Source: Candidatus Lokiarchaeum ossiferum (GTDB lineage: Archaea > Asgardarchaeota > Lokiarchaeia > Sigyniarchaeales > Promethearchaeaceae). From it: a DNA stretch of 32,000 nucleotides. Numbering within the stretch: the stretch's first letter is position 1; every line of letters begins with the position of its first letter. The notes beneath the pieces are model-generated. The model was not told where the DNA came from. It saw only the letters and a list, made by a program, of their open reading frames with translations, and ran no database searches. This document shows, piece after piece, positions 11,415 to 31,647 of the stretch. The stretch covers positions 4,680,001-4,712,000 of the forward strand of contig CP104013.1 of assembly GCA_025839675.1 (NCBI GenBank), written 5' to 3'. The position numbers were made by a program, and so were the translations under genes.

Positions 11415-12560
11415 TTAATCATTCAACATTTTCTTAATATCTGCAACATTATCTTTTGATGTATTCGTTTCTATTTCAGGTTCATCTTCAATTGTTGGTT
11501 GTTTTTGGGGTTTTTGAACTTCCTTCTTCTTTCCTGGGAAGGGTGGAAGATCTAATTTAGTGGCACTCGGTTTTGCCGATTCTGGAGATTTATCTGATTT
11601 AAGTGTTTGAGCTGTGAATTGAAGTTGGTTCACTTTTTCCGTGAGTTTAATCAAAGATGGGACCAAGGTTGCTAAAGCATTATTCATACTTTCTAATCGA
11701 TGTTCAAATTTCCCAACCGTTTTATCAATATTCATCAAGCGAGTTCGGGATTCAATATTCAAGTTTTCAACTTTTTGCTCCATGCTATTGAGTCGCTCAA
11801 CGGTATTTTTTGCTAAATTCGTTATTTTCTCATCCGCATTAAACTTAGATAATCTATCTTCAATTTTACCTAATCGATTGTCCAGACGATTCATATCCAA
11901 CGTATCTAATTTTGATTTAATCCTGGAAACATCTTCCGTAGTGGCTAAATTAGAGATTTTCATGTCTATTTGGGATTGATAATGTTCCATCTTATCCGAT
12001 AACTTGTTTACTGCTTCATTTGGTGAATTTTCTTTTAATTCTTTGCTTAAATCTTTGATTTGATCTGTAAAATGAACTTCGCCGAATAAAGCATTCAACT
12101 TATATTCCACTTTTTCAAATCTTCCTTGGAGATCAAAACCGTCTAATTTTTGCTCTAGATTGTCTATTCGTTCTAAAACAGGTTTATTATCTAAAGATTG
12201 GGCTTCGATTTGGGGTGACTGATAACTACTTTGAGAATAGGTGGGTATTGGTGCTTGCGGCTGTGTATTTGGTTCCATGGCAGTTACCATTGGAGTTCGT
12301 TGCGGGTATTGGGCTGAACTGGTGCGTTGCGTGGTGCTTTGTATTGGATTTTGAGCGATAGTTGGTGTTTGAGGTGTTGCTCCATAGTTTTGAAAGGATG
12401 CCGTTCTTGGAACTGTGGTAGGAGAAACTCGTTTTTTAGGTGTCAATTCTTTCTTTTGACTCACGGGTTTTCCACATTTTGTACAAAATTTCTGGGAATC
12501 CTTCAATTCTGCACCGCAACCCCAGCAAAATTTTGGGGGACGTTTTTGGGCCATTTTCAT
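11415..12560 (-). CDS. Zinc-ribbon protein with Q/P/T-rich disordered linker and long coiled-coil region
   Basis: 381 aa. The N-terminus CWGCGAELKDSQKFCTKCGKP is a C-x2-C...C-x2-C ribbon. About 100 aa of low-complexity P/Q/T/S follow. Then about 200 aa carry recurring RL(D/N/E)x(L/M)ExK(L/V)-type heptad-like motifs. The tail is acidic/basic. No TM segment. Confidence 0.6.
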   Translation of the reverse strand: MKMAQKRPPKFCWGCGAELKDSQKFCTKCGKPVSQKKELTPKKRVSPTTVPRTASFQNYGATPQTPTIAQNPIQSTTQRTSSAQYPQRTPMVTAMEPNTQPQAPIPTYSQSSYQSPQIEAQSLDNKPVLERIDNLEQKLDGFDLQGRFEKVEYKLNALFGEVHFTDQIKDLSKELKENSPNEAVNKLSDKMEHYQSQIDMKISNLATTEDVSRIKSKLDTLDMNRLDNRLGKIEDRLSKFNADEKITNLAKNTVERLNSMEQKVENLNIESRTRLMNIDKTVGKFEHRLESMNNALATLVPSLIKLTEKVNQLQFTAQTLKSDKSPESAKPSATKLDLPPFPGKKKEVQKPQKQPTIEDEPEIETNTSKDNVADIKKMLND

Positions 12561-12959: not shown

Positions 12960-13508
12960 TTATTTAGAATAGGGCTTCTTCCAAATGTGGATGTCCATGA
13001 GCTGATTATTTAAATCGTCGAAACAAATGTCCACATTCTTCGCTTCTTTCGCCGAAGTTTCATAATAGGATGCGCGCAATTCTTGTGCCAATGCTTCCCC
13101 TTCCGTTTTCGACACCACCCGCTCTTCGATCAAATCAACCTTATTTCCCAGTAATATTCGAGGGACTCCAGGCGCATATTGTTCTGATTCTTCCACCCAG
13201 TTCTTCACGTGTTCGTATGACTCTCTGCGGGTTAAATCAAACACAAAAATACATGCGAACGCTCCTCGGTAAAAGGATGGTCTTACAAATTGAAAGTGTT
13301 TTTGACCCGCCAAATCCCAAATCTGGAGTCGAATTGCCAAATTTTCTTCAGGTTTATTGATCATCTTAATTGCAAAATTGGCCCCGATGCTCATAATGTA
13401 ATTTTCATTGAATTTTCTTTCCGTAAACTGGAGAACAAGAGATGTTTTACCAACCGCACCATCACCAAGTACAACTACTTTGAAGATATATTCTTTCGGG
13501 CCAGACAT
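12960..13508 (-). CDS. Rab/Ras-superfamily small GTPase (Rab-like)
   Basis: 182 aa. G1 is GDGAVGKT, switch I is SIGANF, G3 is RLQIWDLAGQ, G4 is GNKVD, G5 is ETSAK. Rab-like segments are FYRGA and FVFDLT. There is no C-terminal Cys prenylation motif (ends HIWKKPYSK). Confidence 0.9.
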   Translation of the reverse strand: MSGPKEYIFKVVVLGDGAVGKTSLVLQFTERKFNENYIMSIGANFAIKMINKPEENLAIRLQIWDLAGQKHFQFVRPSFYRGAFACIFVFDLTRRESYEHVKNWVEESEQYAPGVPRILLGNKVDLIEERVVSKTEGEALAQELRASYYETSAKEAKNVDICFDDLNNQLMDIHIWKKPYSK

Positions 13509-13705: not shown

Positions 13706-14407
13706 TTAGGAATGTAAGAACCCACGATAACTAAAATAAAAGCCTAACATCATGAAGAATGATGCGAACCATGTGAAAAAACTAGGGGAATCACTTAAAT
13801 TGGCTAATGTAAAGAGGATGAATAGAAGTATGAAGCTAATTCCCATTAATTGGAACGATCGAAACTTAGTTTTGTATTTGGCATCATCCATACGGTGTAA
13901 AATTCGAGTGCTGCTAATTGTCCATAACCCGAAACAGAGGATGGACAATAGTAGAAAAATTACATTTTGCAGTAAAATTACCCGAGGCCAATGAAATGAA
14001 TAATAGGTCATAATCAAAGTGGAAGAACCAAGCATTAATATCGCGTAGCTTGCCCACAATATATAATGGGATGTATTCCAGTTCTCTTTGACCCGAAAAA
14101 TTTCGAGATATAATGCAATAAAAGCAGTATTGGCACAACCAACGAAAATTTGGCTGAAACCAAAACCTAACCATGTATTTTCTCCTAATAGATCATCCCA
14201 TCCTAAAAAATTATCAAACCCCGAAAAAATCATCCCGAGAGAAGTGAAGATATAAGTAAAGAGAAGGAAAATGGTGATTTTTGATTTTTTCTGCTTATAT
14301 TTTGGGATTAAAAGGAAAGCATATATTAAAGCAACCACACCAATGATTAACTTTAATAAACCATGAAAGAAAATGAGAGTTTCTGGGACCGGTAAAATAT
14401 CAGCCAT
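13706..14407 (-). CDS. Seven-transmembrane-helix membrane protein of unknown function
   Basis: 233 aa. I count 7 hydrophobic segments of about 20 aa. No retinal-type Lys in helix 7 and no family motif recognised. Confidence 0.6.
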   Translation of the reverse strand: MADILPVPETLIFFHGLLKLIIGVVALIYAFLLIPKYKQKKSKITIFLLFTYIFTSLGMIFSGFDNFLGWDDLLGENTWLGFGFSQIFVGCANTAFIALYLEIFRVKENWNTSHYILWASYAILMLGSSTLIMTYYSFHWPRVILLQNVIFLLLSILCFGLWTISSTRILHRMDDAKYKTKFRSFQLMGISFILLFILFTLANLSDSPSFFTWFASFFMMLGFYFSYRGFLHS

Positions 14408-17475: not shown

Positions 17476-20400
17476 ATGAAGATTTCCAGACATGCGCGTG
17501 ATAAATATCAATTCCATGAGGAGTATTTTGCAGAAAATGGGGATGCACTATTTTCAGGGGATGTGCATAAAGTCAGAAAATTTGTTCAACAACTTAATCA
17601 AAAGCGGGATCTTATTTCATATCCCGAACTTGCTGCAAAAACAAGCGATGTTTATACATTAACTTTAATTTCAGAAATTAAAGGGTATGTGTACCAATTA
17701 TATTTGGATCAAATTCAAAATTCAAATTTGGCTCAAGAATTATATGAACATTTAGAAAAAGAATTTGATTCCAAAACCCTTCTTGAATGCACAAAATCCT
17801 TAATAGAAGAATTTCCTCCAGATCCCGTTTATAAAAATCAAATTGAAAGTGAAAAATTTCTGGAAATGGAAGAAAATGGAATTAAAAATAACATTAAATA
17901 TTTGCCTGGGTTTATCGAGCTCTGGCTTATAAATTCCAATCCTGCCTTTTCACAATATATGGAATTATATGATGATGAAAATTTAGAAAAACGGACACAA
18001 TATCTTGCCATTGTTGAAAATATCCGAACTTTTATGGAATCCAAACCCAAATTTACTTTTTCTGGTACCAATATTATTGATACTCTTCGAAATCCGGAAT
18101 TAAAGAGTCCACATTCAATTCGTGATCAATTGAAATATATTCAAGAAAATTGGTCCGAATTTATTGGTAAATGGGGATATTTAGTTCTAACCGGTATGGA
18201 TTTGATTCAAGAAGAAGAAAAAATGCGAGGATTTGGTCCAGGAAAAATCCAACCAATGGATTTTTACGGATTAGATATTGAAAACTATACTGCTGACAGT
18301 GCTTGGATGCCTAATGTCATCATGGTTGCTAAGAATGCATATGTTTGGCTAGGGCAGCTCTCTAAACAATATAATCGGGAGATTATTTATTTAAATCAAA
18401 TTCCAAATGAAGAGTTGGATCAATTGGTAAAATGGGGCTTTACATCCTTATGGTTAATTGGATTGTGGGAAAGAAGTCCTGCCTCAAAAACAATAAAAAA
18501 TTGGTGCGGTAATTCAGATGCGGAAGCTTCTGCATATTCCCTCTACGATTATGAAATTGCAGCGGATTTAGGTGGCTATCTTGCGTATCAAGATTTGAAA
18601 GATCGAGCGAGTCAGCGAGGGCTTCGCCTGGCGAGTGATATGGTCCCCAATCACACTGGCATCGATTCAAAATGGATGCGTGATCATCCAGATTGGTATG
18701 TTCAACTTCCTTATCCTCCATTTCCTTCTTATCAATATTCTGGGGCGGATCTATGTGGTGATTCGAATATTGGTGTTTATTTAGAAGATAAATATTTTTC
18801 CCGAACCGATGCGGCTGTGTCTTTTAAACGAGTGGATTTTCGTTCCGGTGATACGAGATATATTTACCATGGGAATGATGGCACGAGTATGCCATGGAAT
18901 GATACTGCTCAATTAAATTTTCTGAATCCTGAAGTACGTGAAGCTGTAATCCAAAAGATTTTGGATGTTGCTCGAATGTTTCCCATAATTCGATTTGATG
19001 CTGCCATGACCTTAACTCGAAAACATTTTCAACGATTATGGTTTCCAGAACCTGGAACTGGAGGGGATATTCCATCGCGTGCGGGAATGGGCATGACTAA
19101 AGAAGAATTTATGAAAAAAGTCCCAGAAGAATTTTGGCGGGAAGTGGTGGAACGTATTCGGACAGAAGTACCTGATACTTTACTTTTGGCTGAAGCTTTT
19201 TGGTTATTAGAAGGTTTTTTTGTTCGAACCTTAGGAATGCATAGAGTATATAACAGTATTTTTATGAACGCATTACGGGATGAGGAAAATTCGCTCTATC
19301 GAGGGTCCATCAAGAAAGCCCTTGAATTTGATAGGCGGATGTTGCAAAGGTTTGTAAATTTCATGAATAACCCTGATGAAGAAACCGCCTCAGTTCAATT
19401 TGGCACTGGGGAGAAGTATTTTGGAATTTGCTTATTATTAGTTACCATGCCTGGATTGCCAATGTTTGGTCATGGTCAAGTTCAAGGATATAAGGAAAAA
19501 TATGGGATGGAGTTTAGGCGAGCTTATTGGGACGAAACGGAAGATCGGGCTCTTCTTCATCACCATGAGCAAACCATCTTCCCAATTATGCAAAAGCGCT
19601 ATCTTTTTGCTCAAGCGGATAATTATTATTTATATGATTTCTGGGCTGGGAATGTTGTAAACGAAGATGTATATGCTTTTTCAAATATGGTTGGAAATGA
19701 ACGCGGTTTTGTTGTTTATAATAATCGATATAGTGAAACTAGCGGTTATGTGAAGAATTCGGTGGGTTATAATGAAAATGGGATCATTCTTCAAAAAGAA
19801 CTTGCTTCCGCTATGAATATTCCACGCGAAGGATATTCAATATTTAAAGATTATATGAGTAAGCTGGAATACATTCGTAAAAATCAAGAAATTCAAGATA
19901 AGGGGTTATATTTTGAGCTAAAACCATATCAAAGCATGTGTTTTTTGGAGTGGAAAAGTGTACAAGATAATGAATTTTCTCACTATTCTCAACTTTACAA
20001 TATGCTGGGTGGAAAAGGAGTACATTCCATTGATGATGCTTTAAAAGAGATGGTCTATAAACCAATTTTAACACCATTCCGTGAATTATTCAATGCTGGT
20101 CTGTTGAAACAAATACTGGTTGAAAAAACCAGTTTTATTGAAATTAAACCAAAAATAGAACATCAATTAAAGTTGTTAATTAATGAAACTCGAAGGTTTG
20201 TGGGGTTGGATTCCAATGGGGACGCTTTAGTTTTAGAAATCCTTAATAAATTGCACAATTTCATAGAATTTGCACAAAACCCTCCATCTCTCGATAATGT
20301 GGATGATCTCACACCTTCAACTCATGCTAAATGGGCAATGTTCTTTGGATGGGTTTTAACTCGTGAACTCGGAAAAGTTAAGAATCCAACTGATTTTTCC

Positions 20401-20847
20401 CTTTTGAGTCGAAGCTGGGTAGAAGAATGGCATCTTGGTAGTGTCATTCATTGGGTGTTAGGTGAAATTTGTCAGGAAAATGAAAAAATTGAAGAATATA
20501 TCTATTTATTGAAAATTTTAATTGGGTATCAAAATTGGGACACTGTTTTGGATTCACAAAAAGCAAACCTGTCATATTTCTCCTTGAAACCCTTGCTTTC
20601 AGACCCTGAAGTCCAAAACTTCCTTGGCTTTAATAGGTATCAAGAATCTTTGTGGTTTAATGAAGAGCGTATGCGGGAACTTTTAAAGGGGTTATTCATG
20701 GTATCCTATTTGAAAAATTATTCTGAAGATCATCTGCATCCCAATCCAGTTTTAGTAAAAATTTATCAAAAATGGAAGGAATCAGTCTTGAAATCCAAAT
20801 TTAAACTAGCTTCCTTCATAGATAACATAAAAAATGGCAACAATTAG
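17476..20847 (+). CDS. Large GH13-like (alpha-amylase superfamily) glycoside hydrolase/transglycosidase
   Basis: 1123 aa. GH13-type conserved regions occur in order: GLRLASDMVPNHTG (I), IRFDAAMTL (II, candidate nucleophile Asp), LLAEAFW (III, candidate acid/base Glu), FVNFMNNPDEE (IV, with NPD in place of the usual NHD). About 300 aa precede and about 450 aa follow the catalytic core. Confidence 0.7.
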   Translation: MKISRHARDKYQFHEEYFAENGDALFSGDVHKVRKFVQQLNQKRDLISYPELAAKTSDVYTLTLISEIKGYVYQLYLDQIQNSNLAQELYEHLEKEFDSKTLLECTKSLIEEFPPDPVYKNQIESEKFLEMEENGIKNNIKYLPGFIELWLINSNPAFSQYMELYDDENLEKRTQYLAIVENIRTFMESKPKFTFSGTNIIDTLRNPELKSPHSIRDQLKYIQENWSEFIGKWGYLVLTGMDLIQEEEKMRGFGPGKIQPMDFYGLDIENYTADSAWMPNVIMVAKNAYVWLGQLSKQYNREIIYLNQIPNEELDQLVKWGFTSLWLIGLWERSPASKTIKNWCGNSDAEASAYSLYDYEIAADLGGYLAYQDLKDRASQRGLRLASDMVPNHTGIDSKWMRDHPDWYVQLPYPPFPSYQYSGADLCGDSNIGVYLEDKYFSRTDAAVSFKRVDFRSGDTRYIYHGNDGTSMPWNDTAQLNFLNPEVREAVIQKILDVARMFPIIRFDAAMTLTRKHFQRLWFPEPGTGGDIPSRAGMGMTKEEFMKKVPEEFWREVVERIRTEVPDTLLLAEAFWLLEGFFVRTLGMHRVYNSIFMNALRDEENSLYRGSIKKALEFDRRMLQRFVNFMNNPDEETASVQFGTGEKYFGICLLLVTMPGLPMFGHGQVQGYKEKYGMEFRRAYWDETEDRALLHHHEQTIFPIMQKRYLFAQADNYYLYDFWAGNVVNEDVYAFSNMVGNERGFVVYNNRYSETSGYVKNSVGYNENGIILQKELASAMNIPREGYSIFKDYMSKLEYIRKNQEIQDKGLYFELKPYQSMCFLEWKSVQDNEFSHYSQLYNMLGGKGVHSIDDALKEMVYKPILTPFRELFNAGLLKQILVEKTSFIEIKPKIEHQLKLLINETRRFVGLDSNGDALVLEILNKLHNFIEFAQNPPSLDNVDDLTPSTHAKWAMFFGWVLTRELGKVKNPTDFSLLSRSWVEEWHLGSVIHWVLGEICQENEKIEEYIYLLKILIGYQNWDTVLDSQKANLSYFSLKPLLSDPEVQNFLGFNRYQESLWFNEERMRELLKGLFMVSYLKNYSEDHLHPNPVLVKIYQKWKESVLKSKFKLASFIDNIKNGNN

Positions 20848-24370: not shown

Positions 24371-24372
24371 TT

Positions 24373-24440
24373 ATCTAAGATATGTATATATTAATAGGGT
24401 ACACAAGATATCTAAAGATATATATATTAATGGGTATACA
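24373..24440. promoter_or_regulatory. Imperfect direct duplication (about 31 bp x2) of a TATA-rich element in a divergent promoter region
   Basis: ATCTAAGATATGTATATATTAATAGGGTACACA (24373-24404) and ATCTAAAGATATATATATTAATGGGTATACA (24410-24440) lie between the UPF0182 gene (minus) and the small ORF (plus). Confidence 0.4.
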
Positions 24441-24447
24441 ATAAAAA

Positions 24448-24822: not shown

Positions 24823-27800
24823 ATGCTGAAAACACGGGAAGAAGTAAATCAACTAATTATTGATGCTGACAAATTGATTCAACAAGAAAAAATTTCAGAA
24901 GGACTTGCATTATTCGATAAAGCAAAAAAGCTTGCGATTGCATTAGATTGGGCTGAAAGAGAATCGCAAATATCTCAAATGATTTCTGATGTGCATTTTA
25001 ATGTAAAAAAAAGACGATTTCTTGAAGAAAAACAAAAAAAAATCGAAGAAAATCTCAAGAAACAGCAAGATGATGAAAATAAATTAGTCGCTGCTCAAAA
25101 AAGGGTATTTGATAAACAACAACAAAATAAACAATTGAAATTAGATCAGTTAAAACAGAAGAAGGAATTTGAATCCCAACAATCCGAAAAAGCTTATAAT
25201 CAATTAGAAATTGGCTCTAAATTTGTTTCTCAAAACCAGTTTGGGGAAGGATTGAATGCTTTTCAAGAAGCGCTAAGAATATTTACTGAAATACATTGGT
25301 CCGCAGAAATTATGCGTACTAAAGAATTAATTTCAGACACGAAAAATAGAAAAAATGAATATGATGTGAAACTTCTCAAGGAAAAACGAAATGTTGAGAC
25401 TCTCCAAAAATCTATTCAACAGGAAAATAAAATTATTGATTCAGAACGAGAAAAAAAAATTTTGGAAGATCAAAAGAAGAACTCAATAAATGAAGAAAAA
25501 ACAAAGAAACAATCTTTTGAAAATCAACTTTCAGATGAAATGTATGATGAAATTTCAAAATGGGAAAAAATTGGTGATGAATACCTTAAGCAAGTTAAAT
25601 CTGGAAATATACTTTCTACTGAGTGCCCATATCCACAAATTATTGAAATTTACTCCCAAAATTACAAAAAAGCAAAGAATCTTGGCTGGACAAATCAAGC
25701 AAATCGATTTTTTGAGGGTATCTCTTTATATAAGGAAAAAATGGTAAGAGATCAAAAACTCAGAGTTATTGAAGAAAGAAAAATATCTAAATCCAAAGCA
25801 GATCAAGATTATATCAATAAAAAAATTAAAACTTCTAAGTTATTGCAACAGGAAAGACAACAAAAAATAGCTTCTAAACGTCAAGAAGAAGAATTGAAAG
25901 CTCAACAAGAGCAAGCTATCGCGGATGAAGTATTGAAATCCATTGATACGATTGAGTCTACAATTAAGCTATATGAAAATCGTGCTGATCGCATTCCCTA
26001 TGAGTGTCCATATGCCCAAGCCATTGAAATTTATAAGGCGGGTGCGAACCGTTTAAAGGAACTCGGTTGGACGGAGCAATCTCAACGTCTTTATGATGGA
26101 ATGAATACATATCGCGAAAAATTAACCAAAGATCAACAATATAGAGAATCCGAAGCCAATCGTATTGCAAAAACCAAAGAAGAAGCGGAAATGTTAGAAA
26201 AACGGGCGACTCTTTCCAAACAATTACAGGAAGAAAAACAACAAAAACTCTTGTCCCAACGTCAAAAAGAAGAATTGAAAGCCCAACAAGAACAAGCAAT
26301 CGCGGATGAAGTGTTTAAATCCATTGATGCGATTGAGTCTACAATTAAGCTATATGAAAATCGTGCTGATCGCATTCCCTATGAGTGTCCATATGCCCAA
26401 GCCGTTGAAATTTATAAGGCGGGTGCGAACCGTTTGAAGGAACTCGGTTGGACGGAGCAATCTCAGCGTCTTTATGATGGAATGAATACTTACCGGGAAA
26501 AATTGACCAAGGATCAACAATATAGAGAGTCCGAAGCCAATCGTATTGCAAAAACCAAAGAAGAAGCAGAAATGTTAGAAAAACGAGCGGCTCTTTCCAA
26601 AAAATTACAAGAAGAAAAACAACAAAAACTCCTGTCCCAACGTCAAGAAGAAGAATTGAAAGCTCAACAAGAGCAAGCTATCGCGGATGAAGTGTTTAAA
26701 TCCATTGATGCGATTGAGTCTACAATTAAGCTATATGAAAATCGTGCTGATCGCATTCCCTATGAGTGTCCATATGCCCAAGCCATTGAAATATATAAGG
26801 CGGGTGCGAACCGTTTAAAGGAACTCGGTTGGACGGAGCAATCTCAACGTCTTTATGATGGAATGAATACATATCGCGAAAAATTAACCAAAGATCAACA
26901 ATATAGAGAATCCGAAGCCAATCGTATTGCAAAAACCAAAGAAGAAGCGGAAATGTTAGAAAAACGGGCGGCTCTTTCCAAACAATTACAGGAAGAAAAA
27001 CAACAAAAACTCTTGTCCCAACGTCAAGAAGAGGAATTGAAAGCTCAACAAGAGCAAGCTATCGCGGATGAAGTGTTTAAATCCATTGATACGATTGAGT
27101 CTACAATTAAGCTATATGAAAATCGTGCTGATCGCATTCCCTATGAGTGTCCATATGCCCAAGCCATTGAAATTTATAAGGCGGGTGCGAACCGTTTGAA
27201 GGAACTCGGTTGGAAGGAGCAATCTCAGCGTCTTTATGATGGAATGAATACTTACCGGGAAAAATTGACCAAGGATCAACAATATAGAGAGTCCGAAGCC
27301 AATCGTATTGCAAAAACCAAAGAAGAAGCGGAAATGTTAGAAAAACGGGCGGCTCTTTCCAAACAATTACAGGAAGAAAAACAACAAAAACTCCTGTCCC
27401 AACGTCAAAAAGAAGAATTGAAAGCCCAACAAGAACAAGCTATTGCGGATGAAGTGTTTAAATCCATTGATGCGATTGAGTCTACAATTAAGCTATATGA
27501 AAATCGTGCTGATCGCATTCCCTATGAGTGTCCATATGCCCAAGCCATTGAAATTTATAAGGCGGGTGCGAACCGTTTAAAGGAACTCGGTTGGACGGAG
27601 CAATCTCAGCGTCTTTATGATGGAATGAATACATATCGCGAAAAATTAACCAAAGATCAACAATATAGAGAATCCGAGGCCAATCGTATTGCAAAAACCA
27701 AAGAAGAAGCGGAAATGTTAGAAAAACGGGCGGCTCTTTCCAAACAATTGCAGGAAGAAAAACAACAAAAACTCCTGTCCCAACGTCAAGAAGAGGAATT

Positions 27801-30800
27801 GAAAGCTCAACAAGAGCAAGCTATCGCGGATGAAGTGTTTAAATTCATTGATACGATTGAGTCTACAATTAAGCTATATGAAAATCATGCTGATCGCATT
27901 CCCTATGAGTGTCCATATGCTCAAGCCATTGAAATTTATAAGGCGGGTGCGAACCGCTTGAAGGAAATCGGTTGGACGGAGCAATCTCTGCGTCTTTATG
28001 ATGGAATGAATACATATCGCGAAAAATTAACCAAAGATCAACAATATAGAGAATCCGAAGCCAATCGTATTGCAAAAACCAAAGAAGAAGCGGAAATGTT
28101 AGAAAAACGGGCGGCTCTTTCCAAACAATTACAGGAAGAAAAACAACAAAAACTCCTGTCCCAACGTCAAAAAGAAGAATTGAAAGCCCAACAAGAACAA
28201 GCTATTGCGGATGAAGTGTTTAATTCCATTGATACGATTGAGTCTACAATTAAACTATATGAAAATCATGCTGATCGCATTTCCTATGAATGCCCATATA
28301 CGCAAGCCATTGAAATTTATAAGGTGGGTGCGAACCGCTTGAAGGAACTCGGTTGGACGGAGCAATCTCAACGTCTTTATGATGGAATGAATACTTACCG
28401 CGAAAAGTTAACCAAAGATCAACAATATAGAGAGTCTGAAGCAATGAAAGTGCTAAAGACCCAAAAAGATACCGAATTGCTGGAAAAACGCTCCCTTTTA
28501 TCCCATCAACTAGAATTAGAAAAAAAGCAGCAAAAATTGCGTCATGAACAAGAATTAAGAGAAAAAGCCAGAAGAGAGAAATTACTAGGTGAAAGTGTTT
28601 TTAATGAAATCGATAAAATTGAAGCTGTTATAAAAAAATATGAATCCTTAGAGGATATTATCCCATATGAATGTCCATACTCTGAAGCCATAAATGTTTA
28701 TAAAAAGAGCGCAAATCGGTTGAAAGATTTGGGTTGGCTTGAACAATCTTTACGATTGTATGATGGAATGAATACTTATCGAGAGAAACTTGCAAAAGAT
28801 AAGCAATTTCGTTTAAATGATGCAAAAAGAATCGTAAAGACGAAGAAAGATGCCGAGATGTTAGAAAAAAGAGCAGCTATCTCCAAAAAATTACAACAGG
28901 AAAAAGAACAACGTATAATTAAGGAAAGAGAAGCAGAAAAGGCAAAACTTGATAATCAAACTACTATTGCAAATGAAATTTTTAGACAAATTGATGAAAT
29001 TGAAGAAATTGTCAAGAATTATGAAAACAATGTTGATATCTTTTCGATTGAATGTCCCTACTCTATTGCAATAGAAAAGTATCAATATGGTTCAAGGAAA
29101 TTGCAAGAGATTGGGTGGATTGAAGAATCAACTAGGTTGTTAGATGGGGTTGAGCTATATCGTGAAAAATTGATTAAAGACAATACTTTTCGCCAACTCG
29201 AGAAAAAACGAATTGAGAAAATTCAAGAAGATGCTGCTTTAATTGAACAACGTGTAAATTTATCTAAAAAATTGAAAGAAGAACGAGAAAAGATAGAAGA
29301 AGAGCAAAGATTCCGAGAATTGGAGAGTAAAAAACAAAAAGAGTCTTTAGCTCAAAAAGTTTTTTTGGAAATTGATGAAATCGAAAATCAAGTAAAACAA
29401 TATGAAAATCAACCGGATAGAATCCCATATGATTGTCCTTATCAAAAAGCTATAAATATATATCAAGAAAATGCGTCAAAATTGCGTGATATTGGTTGGG
29501 GCGAGGAAGCTGCTCGATTATTTGATGGTGTGAATACTTATCAACAAAAATTAGCTGCAGATAAAAGTTATAGAAAGTTGGAAATGCTGAGAGTTGCAAA
29601 GACCAAAGAAGAATCTGAAATGCTCGAACGAAGAGCTAAGCTGGCCAAAGAAATTGCTGAAGCAACTAAAGCTAAACAAAAAGCTGCAGAACTTCAAATA
29701 GAAAAGGAAAACCAATATAAAAAAGAACAAAGTGATATTGCTTTTGAATTAATGGATAGGGGAAATTTGCTTGCTAATGAACATAATCTTTTTGATCAAG
29801 CAATAGAAAAATTCAAGGAAGCTCAAGAAATTTTTCGTAATATTCATTGGTTTGCAGAAGAAGAGAAAGTTTTGATGCAAATATCTCATTTTCGGGAACG
29901 AAAGCTTCAAAAACAATTAGAAGAGCAGAAAAATAAAGAAGCTTACTTTAAACAACAAAAAGAAATCGAAGAAATAGAGCAACTTGCGAAATTGAGCCAA
30001 GAAATCCAAAATAAAAAATTAAAAGAAGAAGAAACTAGAAAGAGAATTGATGCTGAAGATAAACGAAAACAAGCTGAAATTGAATTTCAAAAACGAATCG
30101 AATTATCCCAAAAGCTAGAAGCAAAAAAATTACAAGAGCGACAGAAAGCTTTACAAGAAGAAATTAATAAAGAAATGCATAATAAGCAAATTCATGACGA
30201 ATGCCTGGAACTTCTAGAAAAAGCACGCGTTTTCGTGACTGATCAGAAAATTGAAGCAGCATTAAAAATTTATAATACAGTGATTGAAAAATATGCTTCA
30301 ATTGACTATTTTGACGGGATTAGACTAACAAAAGATACTATTCTTAAGGTAGAACAAGATTTTGAAGAATTTAAGAAGCAAGAAATGTTAAAACTCAAGT
30401 CTATTCAGGAAAGAAAGGAAGAAGAAGCGAGATTGGAAAAATTGATTTTAGCTGCTAAAGAAGAGTCGGAACGACAAAAGCTTGAAGAACAAAAAAGATT
30501 TTTGCAAGAAGAAGTAGAAAGGGAGGAAAGAGAGCAAATTCAAGATGAAATTATTACTTTAATTGCAGATGCTGGAAATCTTGCACAAAGTAATAATTTT
30601 GAAAAATCACTTGAAATCTATCAAAAAGCTTTAAAATTATTTGATAAAATTTCTTGGCCGTTAAAACATCAACAAGTAAAAAGCATCATTAATGAAGTTA
30701 AATCAAAGAAAAAAACTTATGAAGAAAATCTTCGCCTTAAAAAAATCCAGAATGAAAAGTTGGAGGCTGAAAGGAAAGAATTTGAAGAGATGATGGCTCA

Positions 30801-31647
30801 ACAAGAAAGAAAAAGAAAATCACAAGAAGAACTCGCTGAGCAGCAATCTATGGAAAGACAGATTGAGATCGCTCGTCAAAAAGAAATGGGTGATAATGCA
30901 TATCGCATGTTAGAATTAGCTGAGAATTCAAGCGAGTCTCGTAAAAAATATCTTGGTTTACATTATTTTCACTATGCTCTATTTAATTTCAAGACTATTG
31001 GATGGGATCGTGAAGCAAAAACTACCAAAAAAAGGTTTATTGGTATATATAATTCTATTCAATCTCCATTAATTGATGTTAATGAACTTTTGATGAACGA
31101 AAAACTTGAAAAGGAGTTTCACATAATGAATTCTTTAACGCAAGTTATTAAATGGAAGAATAGAAACGATTTTTCCGCTGCCCAAACCGAAATTAAGACG
31201 ATCATTCATCTGGTTCAAGAATTTGGGTGGGTTAAATCCTTAAAGTTACTCCAATCATTTCAAGACCAATTGAAAATTGAAGAAAAATTGTATCTGAAAG
31301 AATTGGAATCTGAACAATCTAAACCAAGTGAAGAAAAAGCAAATAAATTAATAAAACAAGCTACATATCAAATAAAACAATTATCCTATGATAAAGGAAT
31401 TAATTTGGCTGAAGAAGCTCACGAAATGCTTGTCCAGATTGGAAGGGCGAGAGAAGCGAGAACTGTGGAGCAAGAATTGTTGAGGTGGAAATTGAAAGCG
31501 GAAAAAGCGTTACAAAAGAAAAATTCATCCGATAGATCGGAATCTCCAAAAATATCTCAATATTTAACTGATGAAGAACGAAGAAGAGCAATTATTGATG
31601 AAAGAAAGCGTAGGAGAAGAGAAGCTCGCAAAAAATTTCAGAAATAA
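24823..31647 (+). CDS. 2274-aa soluble repeat protein: helical-hairpin mini-domains separated by long E/K/Q/R-rich helices; family unknown
   Basis: One uninterrupted 6.8-kb ORF with no hydrophobic TM segment or signal peptide. It has 11 modules with an (E/D)CPY...GW signature plus about 8 related hairpins with a conserved aromatic (e.g. EALRIFTEIHW, EAQEIFRNIHW, ALKLFDKISW, ALFNFKTIGW). The C-terminal tail is basic (RKRRRREARKKFQK). Confidence 0.85.
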   Translation: MLKTREEVNQLIIDADKLIQQEKISEGLALFDKAKKLAIALDWAERESQISQMISDVHFNVKKRRFLEEKQKKIEENLKKQQDDENKLVAAQKRVFDKQQQNKQLKLDQLKQKKEFESQQSEKAYNQLEIGSKFVSQNQFGEGLNAFQEALRIFTEIHWSAEIMRTKELISDTKNRKNEYDVKLLKEKRNVETLQKSIQQENKIIDSEREKKILEDQKKNSINEEKTKKQSFENQLSDEMYDEISKWEKIGDEYLKQVKSGNILSTECPYPQIIEIYSQNYKKAKNLGWTNQANRFFEGISLYKEKMVRDQKLRVIEERKISKSKADQDYINKKIKTSKLLQQERQQKIASKRQEEELKAQQEQAIADEVLKSIDTIESTIKLYENRADRIPYECPYAQAIEIYKAGANRLKELGWTEQSQRLYDGMNTYREKLTKDQQYRESEANRIAKTKEEAEMLEKRATLSKQLQEEKQQKLLSQRQKEELKAQQEQAIADEVFKSIDAIESTIKLYENRADRIPYECPYAQAVEIYKAGANRLKELGWTEQSQRLYDGMNTYREKLTKDQQYRESEANRIAKTKEEAEMLEKRAALSKKLQEEKQQKLLSQRQEEELKAQQEQAIADEVFKSIDAIESTIKLYENRADRIPYECPYAQAIEIYKAGANRLKELGWTEQSQRLYDGMNTYREKLTKDQQYRESEANRIAKTKEEAEMLEKRAALSKQLQEEKQQKLLSQRQEEELKAQQEQAIADEVFKSIDTIESTIKLYENRADRIPYECPYAQAIEIYKAGANRLKELGWKEQSQRLYDGMNTYREKLTKDQQYRESEANRIAKTKEEAEMLEKRAALSKQLQEEKQQKLLSQRQKEELKAQQEQAIADEVFKSIDAIESTIKLYENRADRIPYECPYAQAIEIYKAGANRLKELGWTEQSQRLYDGMNTYREKLTKDQQYRESEANRIAKTKEEAEMLEKRAALSKQLQEEKQQKLLSQRQEEELKAQQEQAIADEVFKFIDTIESTIKLYENHADRIPYECPYAQAIEIYKAGANRLKEIGWTEQSLRLYDGMNTYREKLTKDQQYRESEANRIAKTKEEAEMLEKRAALSKQLQEEKQQKLLSQRQKEELKAQQEQAIADEVFNSIDTIESTIKLYENHADRISYECPYTQAIEIYKVGANRLKELGWTEQSQRLYDGMNTYREKLTKDQQYRESEAMKVLKTQKDTELLEKRSLLSHQLELEKKQQKLRHEQELREKARREKLLGESVFNEIDKIEAVIKKYESLEDIIPYECPYSEAINVYKKSANRLKDLGWLEQSLRLYDGMNTYREKLAKDKQFRLNDAKRIVKTKKDAEMLEKRAAISKKLQQEKEQRIIKEREAEKAKLDNQTTIANEIFRQIDEIEEIVKNYENNVDIFSIECPYSIAIEKYQYGSRKLQEIGWIEESTRLLDGVELYREKLIKDNTFRQLEKKRIEKIQEDAALIEQRVNLSKKLKEEREKIEEEQRFRELESKKQKESLAQKVFLEIDEIENQVKQYENQPDRIPYDCPYQKAINIYQENASKLRDIGWGEEAARLFDGVNTYQQKLAADKSYRKLEMLRVAKTKEESEMLERRAKLAKEIAEATKAKQKAAELQIEKENQYKKEQSDIAFELMDRGNLLANEHNLFDQAIEKFKEAQEIFRNIHWFAEEEKVLMQISHFRERKLQKQLEEQKNKEAYFKQQKEIEEIEQLAKLSQEIQNKKLKEEETRKRIDAEDKRKQAEIEFQKRIELSQKLEAKKLQERQKALQEEINKEMHNKQIHDECLELLEKARVFVTDQKIEAALKIYNTVIEKYASIDYFDGIRLTKDTILKVEQDFEEFKKQEMLKLKSIQERKEEEARLEKLILAAKEESERQKLEEQKRFLQEEVEREEREQIQDEIITLIADAGNLAQSNNFEKSLEIYQKALKLFDKISWPLKHQQVKSIINEVKSKKKTYEENLRLKKIQNEKLEAERKEFEEMMAQQERKRKSQEELAEQQSMERQIEIARQKEMGDNAYRMLELAENSSESRKKYLGLHYFHYALFNFKTIGWDREAKTTKKRFIGIYNSIQSPLIDVNELLMNEKLEKEFHIMNSLTQVIKWKNRNDFSAAQTEIKTIIHLVQEFGWVKSLKLLQSFQDQLKIEEKLYLKELESEQSKPSEEKANKLIKQATYQIKQLSYDKGINLAEEAHEMLVQIGRAREARTVEQELLRWKLKAEKALQKKNSSDRSESPKISQYLTDEERRRAIIDERKRRRREARKKFQK
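25498..29688 (+). repeat. Array of 11 tandem 127-codon coding modules (1 diverged, 7 near-identical, 3 diverged)
   Basis: Module starts in register are about 25498, 25879, 26260, 26641, 27022, 27403, 27784, 28165, 28540 (6-nt deletion), 28927 (6-nt insertion) and 29308. Each carries ...Y(E/D)CPY..AI..Y......L...GW.E...R...G...Y..KL. Confidence 0.85.
25879..28443 (+). repeat. Near-identical 381-bp tandem repeat core (about 6.7 copies), in frame
   Basis: The string cgtcaaRaagaRgaattgaaagc recurs at exactly 381-nt spacing (25879 to 28165). Copies 1 and 3 differ at about five positions that I could find by eye. Identity is lost after about 28443. Confidence 0.95.

Follow-up and report, generated by a model that had tools for sequence, protein, structure and literature searches.

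A giant Lokiarchaeum protein of tandem 127-residue modules: an unnamed Asgard family of TPR-like helical bundles and a candidate rod-like scaffold

What kind of protein is built from eleven copies of one 127-residue module that matches no named family, and what might an archaeon use it for? The question is raised by an open reading frame (ORF) of 2274 amino acids (aa) in Candidatus Lokiarchaeum ossiferum, located in a stretch of 32,000 nucleotides (nt) of contig CP104013.1 (assembly GCA_025839675.1, positions 4,680,001 to 4,712,000 of the forward strand), which is referred to here as the window and in whose coordinates its features are given. An earlier note on this DNA, made from the letters and their translations, had singled out the array and could not assign it to a family. 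We argue here, with moderate confidence, that the modules represent an unnamed Asgard-specific family of TPR-like helical domains which would form a polyvalent cytoplasmic rod or scaffold, possibly coupled to a small GTPase.

Anatomy and predicted fold of the module

The ORF (24823..31647, forward strand) contains the whole array of 11 modules. The tripeptide Cys-Pro-Tyr (CPY) occurs at aa 268+127k for k = 0 to 10 (268, 395 ... 1538), with all ten spacings equal to 127 aa and no insertion or deletion, and Tandem Repeats Finder reports a period of 381 nt across 25877-28778 (6.7 copies, 95% match, score 4642), a periodicity that is beyond chance. The eleven copies of a 127-aa module described in the earlier note are thereby confirmed, and the interval it gave (25498-29688, exactly 11 x 381 nt) is the same array as the one delimited here (25528-29718) in a phase that differs by 30 nt. 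Module residues are numbered from aa 363, the first residue of module 2. The protein as a whole is all-alpha in composition (15% E, 13% K and 9% Q) and carries almost equal numbers of basic and acidic residues (K+R 440 vs D+E 438). Nowhere in its 2274 residues is there a hydrophobic run of 15 or more, so neither a signal peptide nor a transmembrane segment was seen.

An AlphaFold2 model of the 82-residue ordered part of the module, based on an alignment of 60 modules, gives a three-helix bundle (predicted local distance difference test score (pLDDT) 96.5, predicted TM-score (pTM) 0.84) in which helix 1 (residues 2-23) is followed by an 11-residue loop (24-34), helix 2 (35-51), a three-residue turn (52-54) and helix 3 (55-81). 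C33-P34 stand directly before the first residue of helix 2 in this model, and G53-W54 occupy the turn that leads to helix 3. When modules 9-11 were modelled together (381 aa, 16-row alignment, pLDDT 89.1) the predicted helices covered residues 2-23, 35-51, 55-151, 162-178, 182-277, 289-305 and 309-380, a single helix of ~96 residues (55-151 and 182-277) taking in helix 3, the entire linker and the helix 1 that follows. An ordered unit is thus predicted, and it is a three-helix bundle rather than the helical hairpin first proposed, the stretch 'ID.IE..IK.YEN' forming helix 1. The ~85 aa of helix that were said to follow the hairpin do appear as a long helix after the G-W turn, but not as a separate tail, since they comprise ~27 residues of helix 3, ~45 of free linker and ~22 of the next helix 1. 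A structural role for the signature, which had been offered alongside a binding role, agrees with the helix boundaries of the model, which would place it at helix ends and in an aromatic core and speak less for a ligand site.

Judging from the model, the element [C/S/P]-P-Y would cap a helix at its N-terminus and G-W would serve as a C-cap with a hydrophobic staple, while Y22, Y35, Y42, W54 and Y68 would fill the aromatic core. Polar contacts between helices or with the loop would be made by E16/E23 of helix 1 and by K71/D75/R79, which lie on one face of helix 3 (i, i+4, i+8). The residues invariant in 11 of 11 copies include C33, P34, Y35, I39, Y42, G53, W54, R60, G64, Y68, K71, D75 and R79, and 17 positions are invariant among the six distinct module variants. 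Across the family, conservation was tabulated over 331 near-complete homologous modules, in which Y22 (97%), E23 (80%), P34 (86%), Y35 (94%), I39 (84%), Y42 (95%), G53 (81%), W54 (85%), Y68 (86%), K71 (89%), D75 (89%) and R79 (91%) are retained. The invariance of the CPY...GW signature claimed from the window therefore holds within this protein, whereas family-wide only P-Y and G-W are general, the Cys being found in 46% of these modules. All 11 modules score 77-89 bits against a profile of 60 diverse family modules and show the family pattern Y22-E23 ... [CSP]-P-Y-x-x-[IAV]-I-x-x-Y ... G-W-x-[ED]-[QE] ... Y-x-x-K-x-x-x-D-x-x-x-R, in tandem and within the 116-136-aa spacing of the family.

The copies differ greatly in age. 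Protein identity to the core is 95-100% for modules 2-7 and 75% for module 8 (93% in its bundle part), and falls further in modules 9-11 and in module 1 (Table 1), a gradient that matches the young core flanked by one older copy upstream and three downstream that had been read from the DNA. At the nucleotide level modules 2-7 are 94-98% identical, and codon differences between young neighbouring pairs are mostly synonymous (16 vs 2 non-synonymous for modules 3 and 4, 12 vs 3 for another pair and 13 vs 3 for modules 5 and 6), whereas neutral change would yield the opposite ratio; the frame is therefore translated, and its copies have been under purifying selection since they arose. Variants are common to alternate young copies (pattern AGAGA), so the last amplification proceeded by a two-module unit of 762 nt, the count of six near-identical 381-nt units resting on the genome assembly. 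The orthologue in Candidatus Harpocratesius repetitus (Ca. H. repetitus, locus L001) has a 381-nt array of its own (5.4 copies), founded by a different module, and copy number is labile, changing by independent 381-nt amplifications. An antisense ORF inside the repeats (25964-26299) was considered spurious.

Outside the array, units lacking CPY are centred on W43, W159, W1676, W1945, W2061 and W2136; homologues retain them, and their match to the module profile is weak. Each of these end units resembles one TPR with a capping helix behind it, and the CPY module looks like a specialised derivative of them. The unit at aa 121-183 is a distant, more TPR-like relative of the CPY module.

Distribution of the family and its genomic context

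An exhaustive HMMER search of 1.84 billion cluster representatives with the module profile returned 128 proteins at E <= 1e-3, 81 at E <= 1e-10 and 37 at E <= 1e-30. The strong matches are large proteins with 3-18 tandem modules each, the largest reaching 2910 aa with 18 modules, and the named ones that were checked are all annotated as 'hypothetical protein' of Promethearchaeota, Lokiarchaeota or Harpocratesius. The cultured Promethearchaeum syntrophicum MK-D1 has a member of 2547 aa with 12 modules (DSAG12_01611; QEE15784.2, UniProt A0A5B9D9F8). Among the ten weakest matches, which were also checked, three named Promethearchaeota proteins carry the same 'hypothetical protein' label, and a hemichordate 'fibronectin-like' protein, a Flavilitoribacter TPR protein and a helicase were rejected as members, with only 25-30 profile columns aligned. 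The phyletic survey recommended in the earlier note thus finds that all named full-length members checked belong to Promethearchaeota. The exact protein of the window is absent from a collection of 15 billion proteins, where its closest relative is ~39% identical, and because of this distance a word-indexed search was insensitive here, giving no match for the module alignment and one for a 336-aa segment compared with the 128 of exhaustive HMMER. For fast-evolving, compositionally biased repeat proteins, 'no match' from a word index is not to be taken as evidence of an orphan.

When one genome per GTDB species was scanned with a 10-sequence module alignment and a single peptide pattern, at least 41 loci were found, titled as Promethearchaeota/Promethearchaeia (33), Hodarchaeota (3), 'uncultured archaeon' (4) and 'Nanopelagicaceae' (1). 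The best locus is that of Ca. H. repetitus, which is syntenic with the window and encodes an orthologue of 2417 aa; by this comparison the window belongs to an Asgard archaeon of Lokiarchaeia type that is a relative of that genus, although not a near one. The locus titled 'Candidatus Nanopelagicaceae bacterium' (L029, DATKTW010000079.1) is a 12-kb contig of a metagenome-assembled genome encoding a proteasome alpha subunit, a UPF0182-like protein, a small ORF, a 1752-aa giant protein, an RHH protein and a 106-aa protein; as this is the Asgard gene order, the contig is probably Asgard and misbinned into an actinobacterial genome.

Scans with Pfam and NCBIfam gave no match on the modules, a search of PDB sequences with the module profile gave nothing significant, and Foldseek against the PDB gave nothing at E < 0.19 with either the single-module or the three-module model. 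These results support the original statement that no family could be assigned, and no confident profile match to a characterised repeat family was obtained. When 60 diverse modules were compared singly with Pfam, no family was matched by more than three of them. Whole-protein matches to NCBIfam PuuR and YebB and to Pfam DUF7458 lie far below their cut-offs in charged helical segments and were set aside as compositional. Literature searches on the MK-D1 locus tag and on Asgard spectrin-like, single-helix, TPR/coiled-coil and GTPase-effector topics found no description of the family. The family is therefore new to Pfam, NCBIfam, the PDB and the searchable literature, and so is its arrangement of isolated TPR-like bundles and free helices of ~45 residues at a fixed period; small TPR-like three-helix bundles as a class of fold, and the joining of bundles by shared helices as in spectrin, are already known.

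Gene order was compared by clustering the ORFs of the 41 loci together with those of the window. In about 22 of the loci L006-L041 a Sir2 gene on the opposite strand is followed by genes for a Ras-like GTPase, a proteasome alpha subunit, a small protein of ~130 aa and the giant protein, beyond which lie an RHH regulator gene on the opposite strand and genes for a 106-aa protein, a zinc-ribbon protein, a GNAT acetyltransferase, three RFC subunits and a membrane protein. An example of this block is found in locus L023 (4260-17802), where the zinc-ribbon protein has 95 aa and four Cys and the 106-aa protein has no assigned function. The block is broken up in the window and in Ca. H. repetitus.

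The most constant neighbour is the small ORF. A homologue lies directly upstream of the giant gene in 27-28 of the 41 loci, at a gap of 44-274 bp, even where the remainder of the block is rearranged. The small-protein family (~130 aa) comprises 598 clusters at E <= 0.001, the best 120 of which are 80-96% identical to the query, and its clusters occur in bins labelled Loki-, Hod-, Hermod-, Thor- and Odinarchaeota. Homologues include those of L023 (5719-6111) and L012 (6189-6581); the copy in the window is shorter (98 aa) and only ~45% identical. No Pfam domain and no PDB relative was found for the small protein; by eye, its C-terminal half looks like a winged helix.

In about 22 other loci the giant gene is preceded, at 1.4-2 kb and in the same direction, by a gene for a homologue of the window's Ras-family GTPase (46-57% identical); counted over all loci, a Ras-like GTPase is linked in about 25. 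A second association with GTPases is seen in short paralogues of ~220 aa with two modules. In L003, L005 and L010 their genes begin 14 bp downstream of a gene for a divergent Ras-like GTPase, the paralogue occupying 9590-10258 in L005; L004 has the same pair of genes side by side, and in L009 and L013 they are found within 0.8-1.1 kb of each other. This divergent GTPase (L005 9009-9575, L010 9006-9572, L003 11639-12205) has a degenerate G3 motif (W-I-L-R-F-D vs W-D-L-A-G-Q in the GTPase of the long family) and GKLD instead of NKxD at G4, and may be a pseudo-GTPase or a non-canonical switch; its divergent neighbour encodes a PAS-like protein of 179 aa. Since small-GTPase genes of MK-D1 generally lie outside operons with their known regulators (PMC10933270), the linkages seen here deserve testing.

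The remaining features of the window are collected in Table 1. The UPF0182-like membrane protein is 52% identical to a 1072-aa counterpart in Ca. H. repetitus; no functional tie between its gene and the giant gene is in evidence, and it is given as context only. The AT-rich intergenic region between this gene and the divergently transcribed small ORF holds 1.9 copies of a 36-nt unit, TATCTAAGAGATATATATATTAATGGGTACACAAGA (24372-24441, 85% match), which could be a duplicated promoter or operator element. The 233-aa ORF that flanks the GTPase was rejected as a proteasome alpha subunit, being unrelated to the gene that follows the GTPase in other loci. The window also encodes SRP54, PTH2, AMMECR1, a radical-SAM enzyme, QRPTase, a sugar nucleotidyltransferase and a phosphoglucomutase, and no tRNA or Rfam element was found in its 32,000 nt.

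Table 1. Features of the giant protein and of neighbouring genes, in coordinates of the window.
Feature	Residues (aa)	Position (strand)	Remarks
381-aa ORF flanking the GTPase		11415-12560 (-)	N-terminal zinc ribbon, then helical region
Ras-family small GTPase		12960..13508 (-)	Pfam Ras, E 4e-51
233-aa ORF flanking the GTPase		13706-14407 (-)	No Pfam match
1123-aa protein		17476-20847 (+)	Weak match to alpha-amylase catalytic domain (E 1.6e-7); 66% identical to syntenic Ca. H. repetitus gene
UPF0182-like membrane protein, 1076 aa		21140..24370 (-)	Divergent neighbour; syntenic in 7 loci
Small ORF, 98 aa		24448..24744 (+)	78 bp upstream of giant gene; no Pfam family
Second N-terminal unit without CPY	~10-60, around W43	(+)	
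N-terminal unit without CPY, '...FGEGLNAFQEALRIFTEIHW...'	121-183	25183..25371 (+)	Weak module-profile match, conditional E 5e-4; kept in homologues
Module 1	236-362	25528..25908 (+)	Oldest copy; 37% identity to core; loop longer by 3 aa, helix 1 displaced by 3 aa
Modules 2-8, young core	363-1251	25909..28575 (+)	7 x 381 nt; linker of module 8 diverged
Ordered part, example module 4	617-698 (first 82 aa)	26671..26916 (+)	C33-P34 in loop 24-34, L-G-W turn 52-54; AlphaFold2
Free linker, example module 4	last 45 aa	26917..27051 (+)	Predicted part of continuous ~96-residue helix
Module 9	1252-1378	28576..28956 (+)	60% identity to core
Module 10	1379-1505	28957..29337 (+)	46% identity to core
Module 11	1506-1632	29338..29718 (+)	47% identity to core
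C-terminal unit without CPY, '...AIEKFKEAQEIFRNIHWFAEEE...'	1655-1697	29785..29913 (+)	Module-profile match, conditional E 2e-6; kept in homologues
C-terminal unit without CPY	1917-1965	30571..30717 (+)	Sole Pfam TPR_2 match of the protein, 15.3 bits, below cut-off 27
Basic C-terminal tail, TDEERRRAIIDERKRRRREARKKFQK		31567..31644 (+)	Basic tail also in Ca. H. repetitus orthologue

Rod-like scaffold, coiled coil or known repeat

Under the reading that we favour, ~82 residues of each module would fold into a compact TPR-like three-helix bundle and an E/K/Q/R-rich helix of ~45 residues would bridge helix 3 to the next helix 1, so that the eleven modules, together with about six more canonical TPR-like end units, would make up a cytoplasmic rod displaying bundles at regular intervals. 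The bundles would then be regularly spaced docking sites for partner proteins and the whole a polyvalent scaffold or tether, with the small conserved protein encoded upstream and the Ras-like small GTPase as candidate partners. Taking 1.5 Å per residue, a helix of ~96 residues and an overlap of ~22 residues, we estimate that each module would advance the rod by ~11 nm along its axis, which would bring the array to more than 100 nm.

The lengths of the parts are consistent with such a connector. Family-wide the module period ranges over 116-136 aa with a sharp mode at 127 (71 of ~270 spacings), and it is uniform within lineages but different between them: the window and P0001-P0004 keep 127, MK-D1 has 130 and other lineages have 120-123. 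Across the family, the length of the loop that joins helices 1 and 2 is free to vary (13, 15, 16 or 19 residues). The span from W54 to the next Y22, which crosses the connecting helix, clusters at 95, 92, 87-89 and 84-86 residues with troughs at 90-91 and 93, in counts that are not phylogenetically independent, as tandem copies inherit their length. Steps of about one helical turn are what would be expected if the azimuthal register between successive bundles matters, and the sequences are suggestive of such a constraint. With a rigid connector, an insertion or deletion would rotate and shift all later bundles, and it is to this proposed rigidity that we attribute both the keeping of unit length despite sequence divergence and the gain of whole units by unequal recombination. 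The 45-residue linker itself consists, family-wide, of E (22%), K (21%), Q (12%), R (9%), L (10%) and A (8%) with 0.2% G and no P, E+K+R+Q amounting to 64%.

Several further points weigh against the scaffold reading. The charge of the linker is only moderate (charged fraction 41-57%, with 0.14-0.24 opposite-charge i/i+4 pairs per residue), and a semi-conserved hydrophobic stripe with 11-7-4 spacing runs along it up to about column 106 (84/86, 95/96, 102 and 106). The three-module model has a pTM of 0.38 and is a monomer prediction in which the relative orientation of the bundles is undefined. The neighbourhood contains housekeeping genes (proteasome alpha, three RFC subunits, Sir2 and GNAT) and could reflect nothing more than conserved synteny. 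The GTPase gene of the window lies 11 kb from the giant gene, on the other strand, and Asgard genomes are rich in small GTPases, so that some adjacency is expected by chance. Furthermore, no paper mentioning DSAG12_01611 was found.

The charge and the stripe are also compatible with a dimeric coiled coil or a folded-back state, and the main rival is accordingly a golgin-like or intermediate-filament-like dimer, in which the ~96-residue helices would pair in parallel and the bundles would be hinges or stutters rather than binding knobs. The stripe reaches ~25 residues past the bundle, the charged fraction is below that of classical ER/K single helices, and the GTPase neighbourhood would fit a GTPase-recruited tether. 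On the other hand, the last ~24 residues of the linker (columns 107-130) are purely polar with no conserved hydrophobic position, AlphaFold2 predicts the helix as a monomer with pLDDT 88-95, and helices 1 and 3 are engaged in the intramolecular bundle, which would break a continuous two-chain register. We regard this dimer as unlikely, while giving it appreciable weight.

Could the protein be an ordinary TPR or Sel1 solenoid missed by the models through its composition? In a search of the whole protein against the Pfam TPR models the only matches are to TPR_2 at aa 1920-1940, beyond the modules and below threshold (15.3 bits, cut-off 27), and to TPR_1 (9.4 bits); the module aligns weakly with a designed consensus TPR (E = 2), the best Foldseek matches, although non-significant, are TPR proteins and SNAP (gamma-SNAP among them, with query TM-scores up to 0.67), and the CPY-less end units resemble single TPRs. 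The likeness to TPR and SNAP hairpins lies in a pair of antiparallel helices that meet through small and aromatic residues, with a capping helix after them. However, no module reaches any Pfam TPR or Sel1 threshold (TPR_12 matches 2 of 60 modules, at E 0.038 at best), and Sel1 families were absent both from the matches of the whole protein at E <= 10 and from the leading families of the 60 single modules. The three-module model, examined for a TPR superhelix, is reported with no packing between modules (pTM 0.38), and its isolated bundles, kept apart by the ~45-residue helices within ~96-residue helices, do not stack into a superhelical solenoid. In addition, the tight TPR turn is replaced by a Pro-containing loop (11 residues in the model, 11-17 when compared with TPR and SNAP hairpins). 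The module is thus TPR-like and off the TPR consensus, as had been suspected, and a conventional solenoid is very unlikely.

Another candidate is an array of MIT domains that would bind the C-terminal MIM motifs of ESCRT-III and make the protein a polyvalent binder of ESCRT-III filaments. The MIT domain (PF04212) is likewise an isolated three-helix bundle of ~75-80 residues, equal in size and topology to the module, although this is a generic feature common to many folds; 6 of 17 weak PDB profile matches are MIT domains (MITD1, a Sulfolobus Vps4-like protein and calpain-7, E 0.14-3.3), and Pfam MIT ranks first among families for single modules (best E 2.5e-4). But the Pfam model is matched by only 3 of the 60 modules, a comparison of the 60-module profile by hhalign with an alignment of the VPS4A, VPS4B and yeast Vps4 MIT domains (three sequences only) gives a probability of 4.6%, and Foldseek places TPR, SNAP and designed bundles above MIT, none of them significantly. 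No ESCRT or Vps4 gene occurs in the conserved neighbourhood, and MIT domains are not known to form long tandem arrays joined by continuous helices. We therefore give this explanation a slight chance at most.

Known rods and spacers offer parallels in architecture. In spectrin, alpha-actinin and dystrophin (PF00435), tandem three-helix bundles are also joined by a last helix that runs unbroken into the next first helix, and beta-spectrin repeats 13-16 are among the best Foldseek matches of the three-module model, at non-significant E 0.24-0.5 and a TM-score of 0.13. No Pfam spectrin match was found, the in-bundle helices of the Asgard module are 22, 17 and 27 residues long compared with ~30 each, its unit is 127 aa compared with ~106, its bundles are separated by a free helix of ~45 residues instead of abutting, and the family is confined to Asgard archaea. 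The Asgard linker resembles the ER/K single alpha-helix spacers of myosin VI/X and caldesmon in being Pro-free, nearly Gly-free, rich in E/K/R/Q and predicted as an isolated helix that keeps a fixed spacing; it differs in its lower charge, its many Q and the partial hydrophobic stripe of its first half, and its single-helix state is a prediction.

The rod of Staphylococcus aureus Ebh is reported to consist of 126-residue repeats forming alternately connected three-helix bundles, and it too is a giant prokaryotic protein with bundles strung on long shared helices. Unlike the Asgard protein, Ebh is a bacterial adhesin that is secreted and associated with the cell wall; each of its repeats has two bundles, and it lacks a free single helix. 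No sequence relationship with Ebh was detected in this analysis.

Finally, that the single Cys per module serves as a metal ligand, a redox centre or a partner in disulfides, perhaps across modules or chains, is extremely improbable, for although the Cys is invariant in the 11 copies and 11 of the 12 Cys among the 2274 residues sit in the motif, position 33 is C in only 46% of family modules (S 27%, P 15%, A 5%), the syntenic Ca. H. repetitus orthologue has QSPY, TPPY and EPPY modules and the modelled bundles are far apart along the rod. An invariant Cys that is peculiar to this one protein argues against such a role, in line with the earlier remark that a zinc site is unlikely, and on family alignments the Cys appears dispensable.

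A candidate element of Asgard cell architecture

Beyond the scaffold reading, a more specific and distinctly speculative possibility, which we think improbable as it stands, is that small GTPases control the protein, which would serve as a tether over long distances or as part of a membrane skeleton. Along a phase-locked rod of ~0.1-0.2 um its identical bundles, held in one azimuthal register by helices of quantised length, would bind a periodic partner such as a filament or a membrane-bound array of GTPases, making the protein a functional prokaryotic counterpart of spectrin, golgin or nebulin-type rulers. The presence of the family in the cultured P. syntrophicum MK-D1 makes this proposal directly testable.

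To our knowledge, the cytoskeletal and trafficking parts catalogued so far in Asgard archaea are only those recognisable by homology to eukaryotic proteins. The family described here escapes Pfam, NCBIfam and PDB searches and is annotated as 'hypothetical protein', and yet its members are among the largest proteins of Asgard genomes. The module is also a clean natural example of a repeat that conserves length over sequence, which we attribute to a rigid-helix connector. Should the protein prove to be a rod-like scaffold or an effector of a GTPase, the toolkit of Asgard cell architecture would gain a structural element specific to this lineage, and cryo-tomograms and proteomes of MK-D1 (DSAG12_01611) and Lokiarchaeum could be searched for a concrete candidate.

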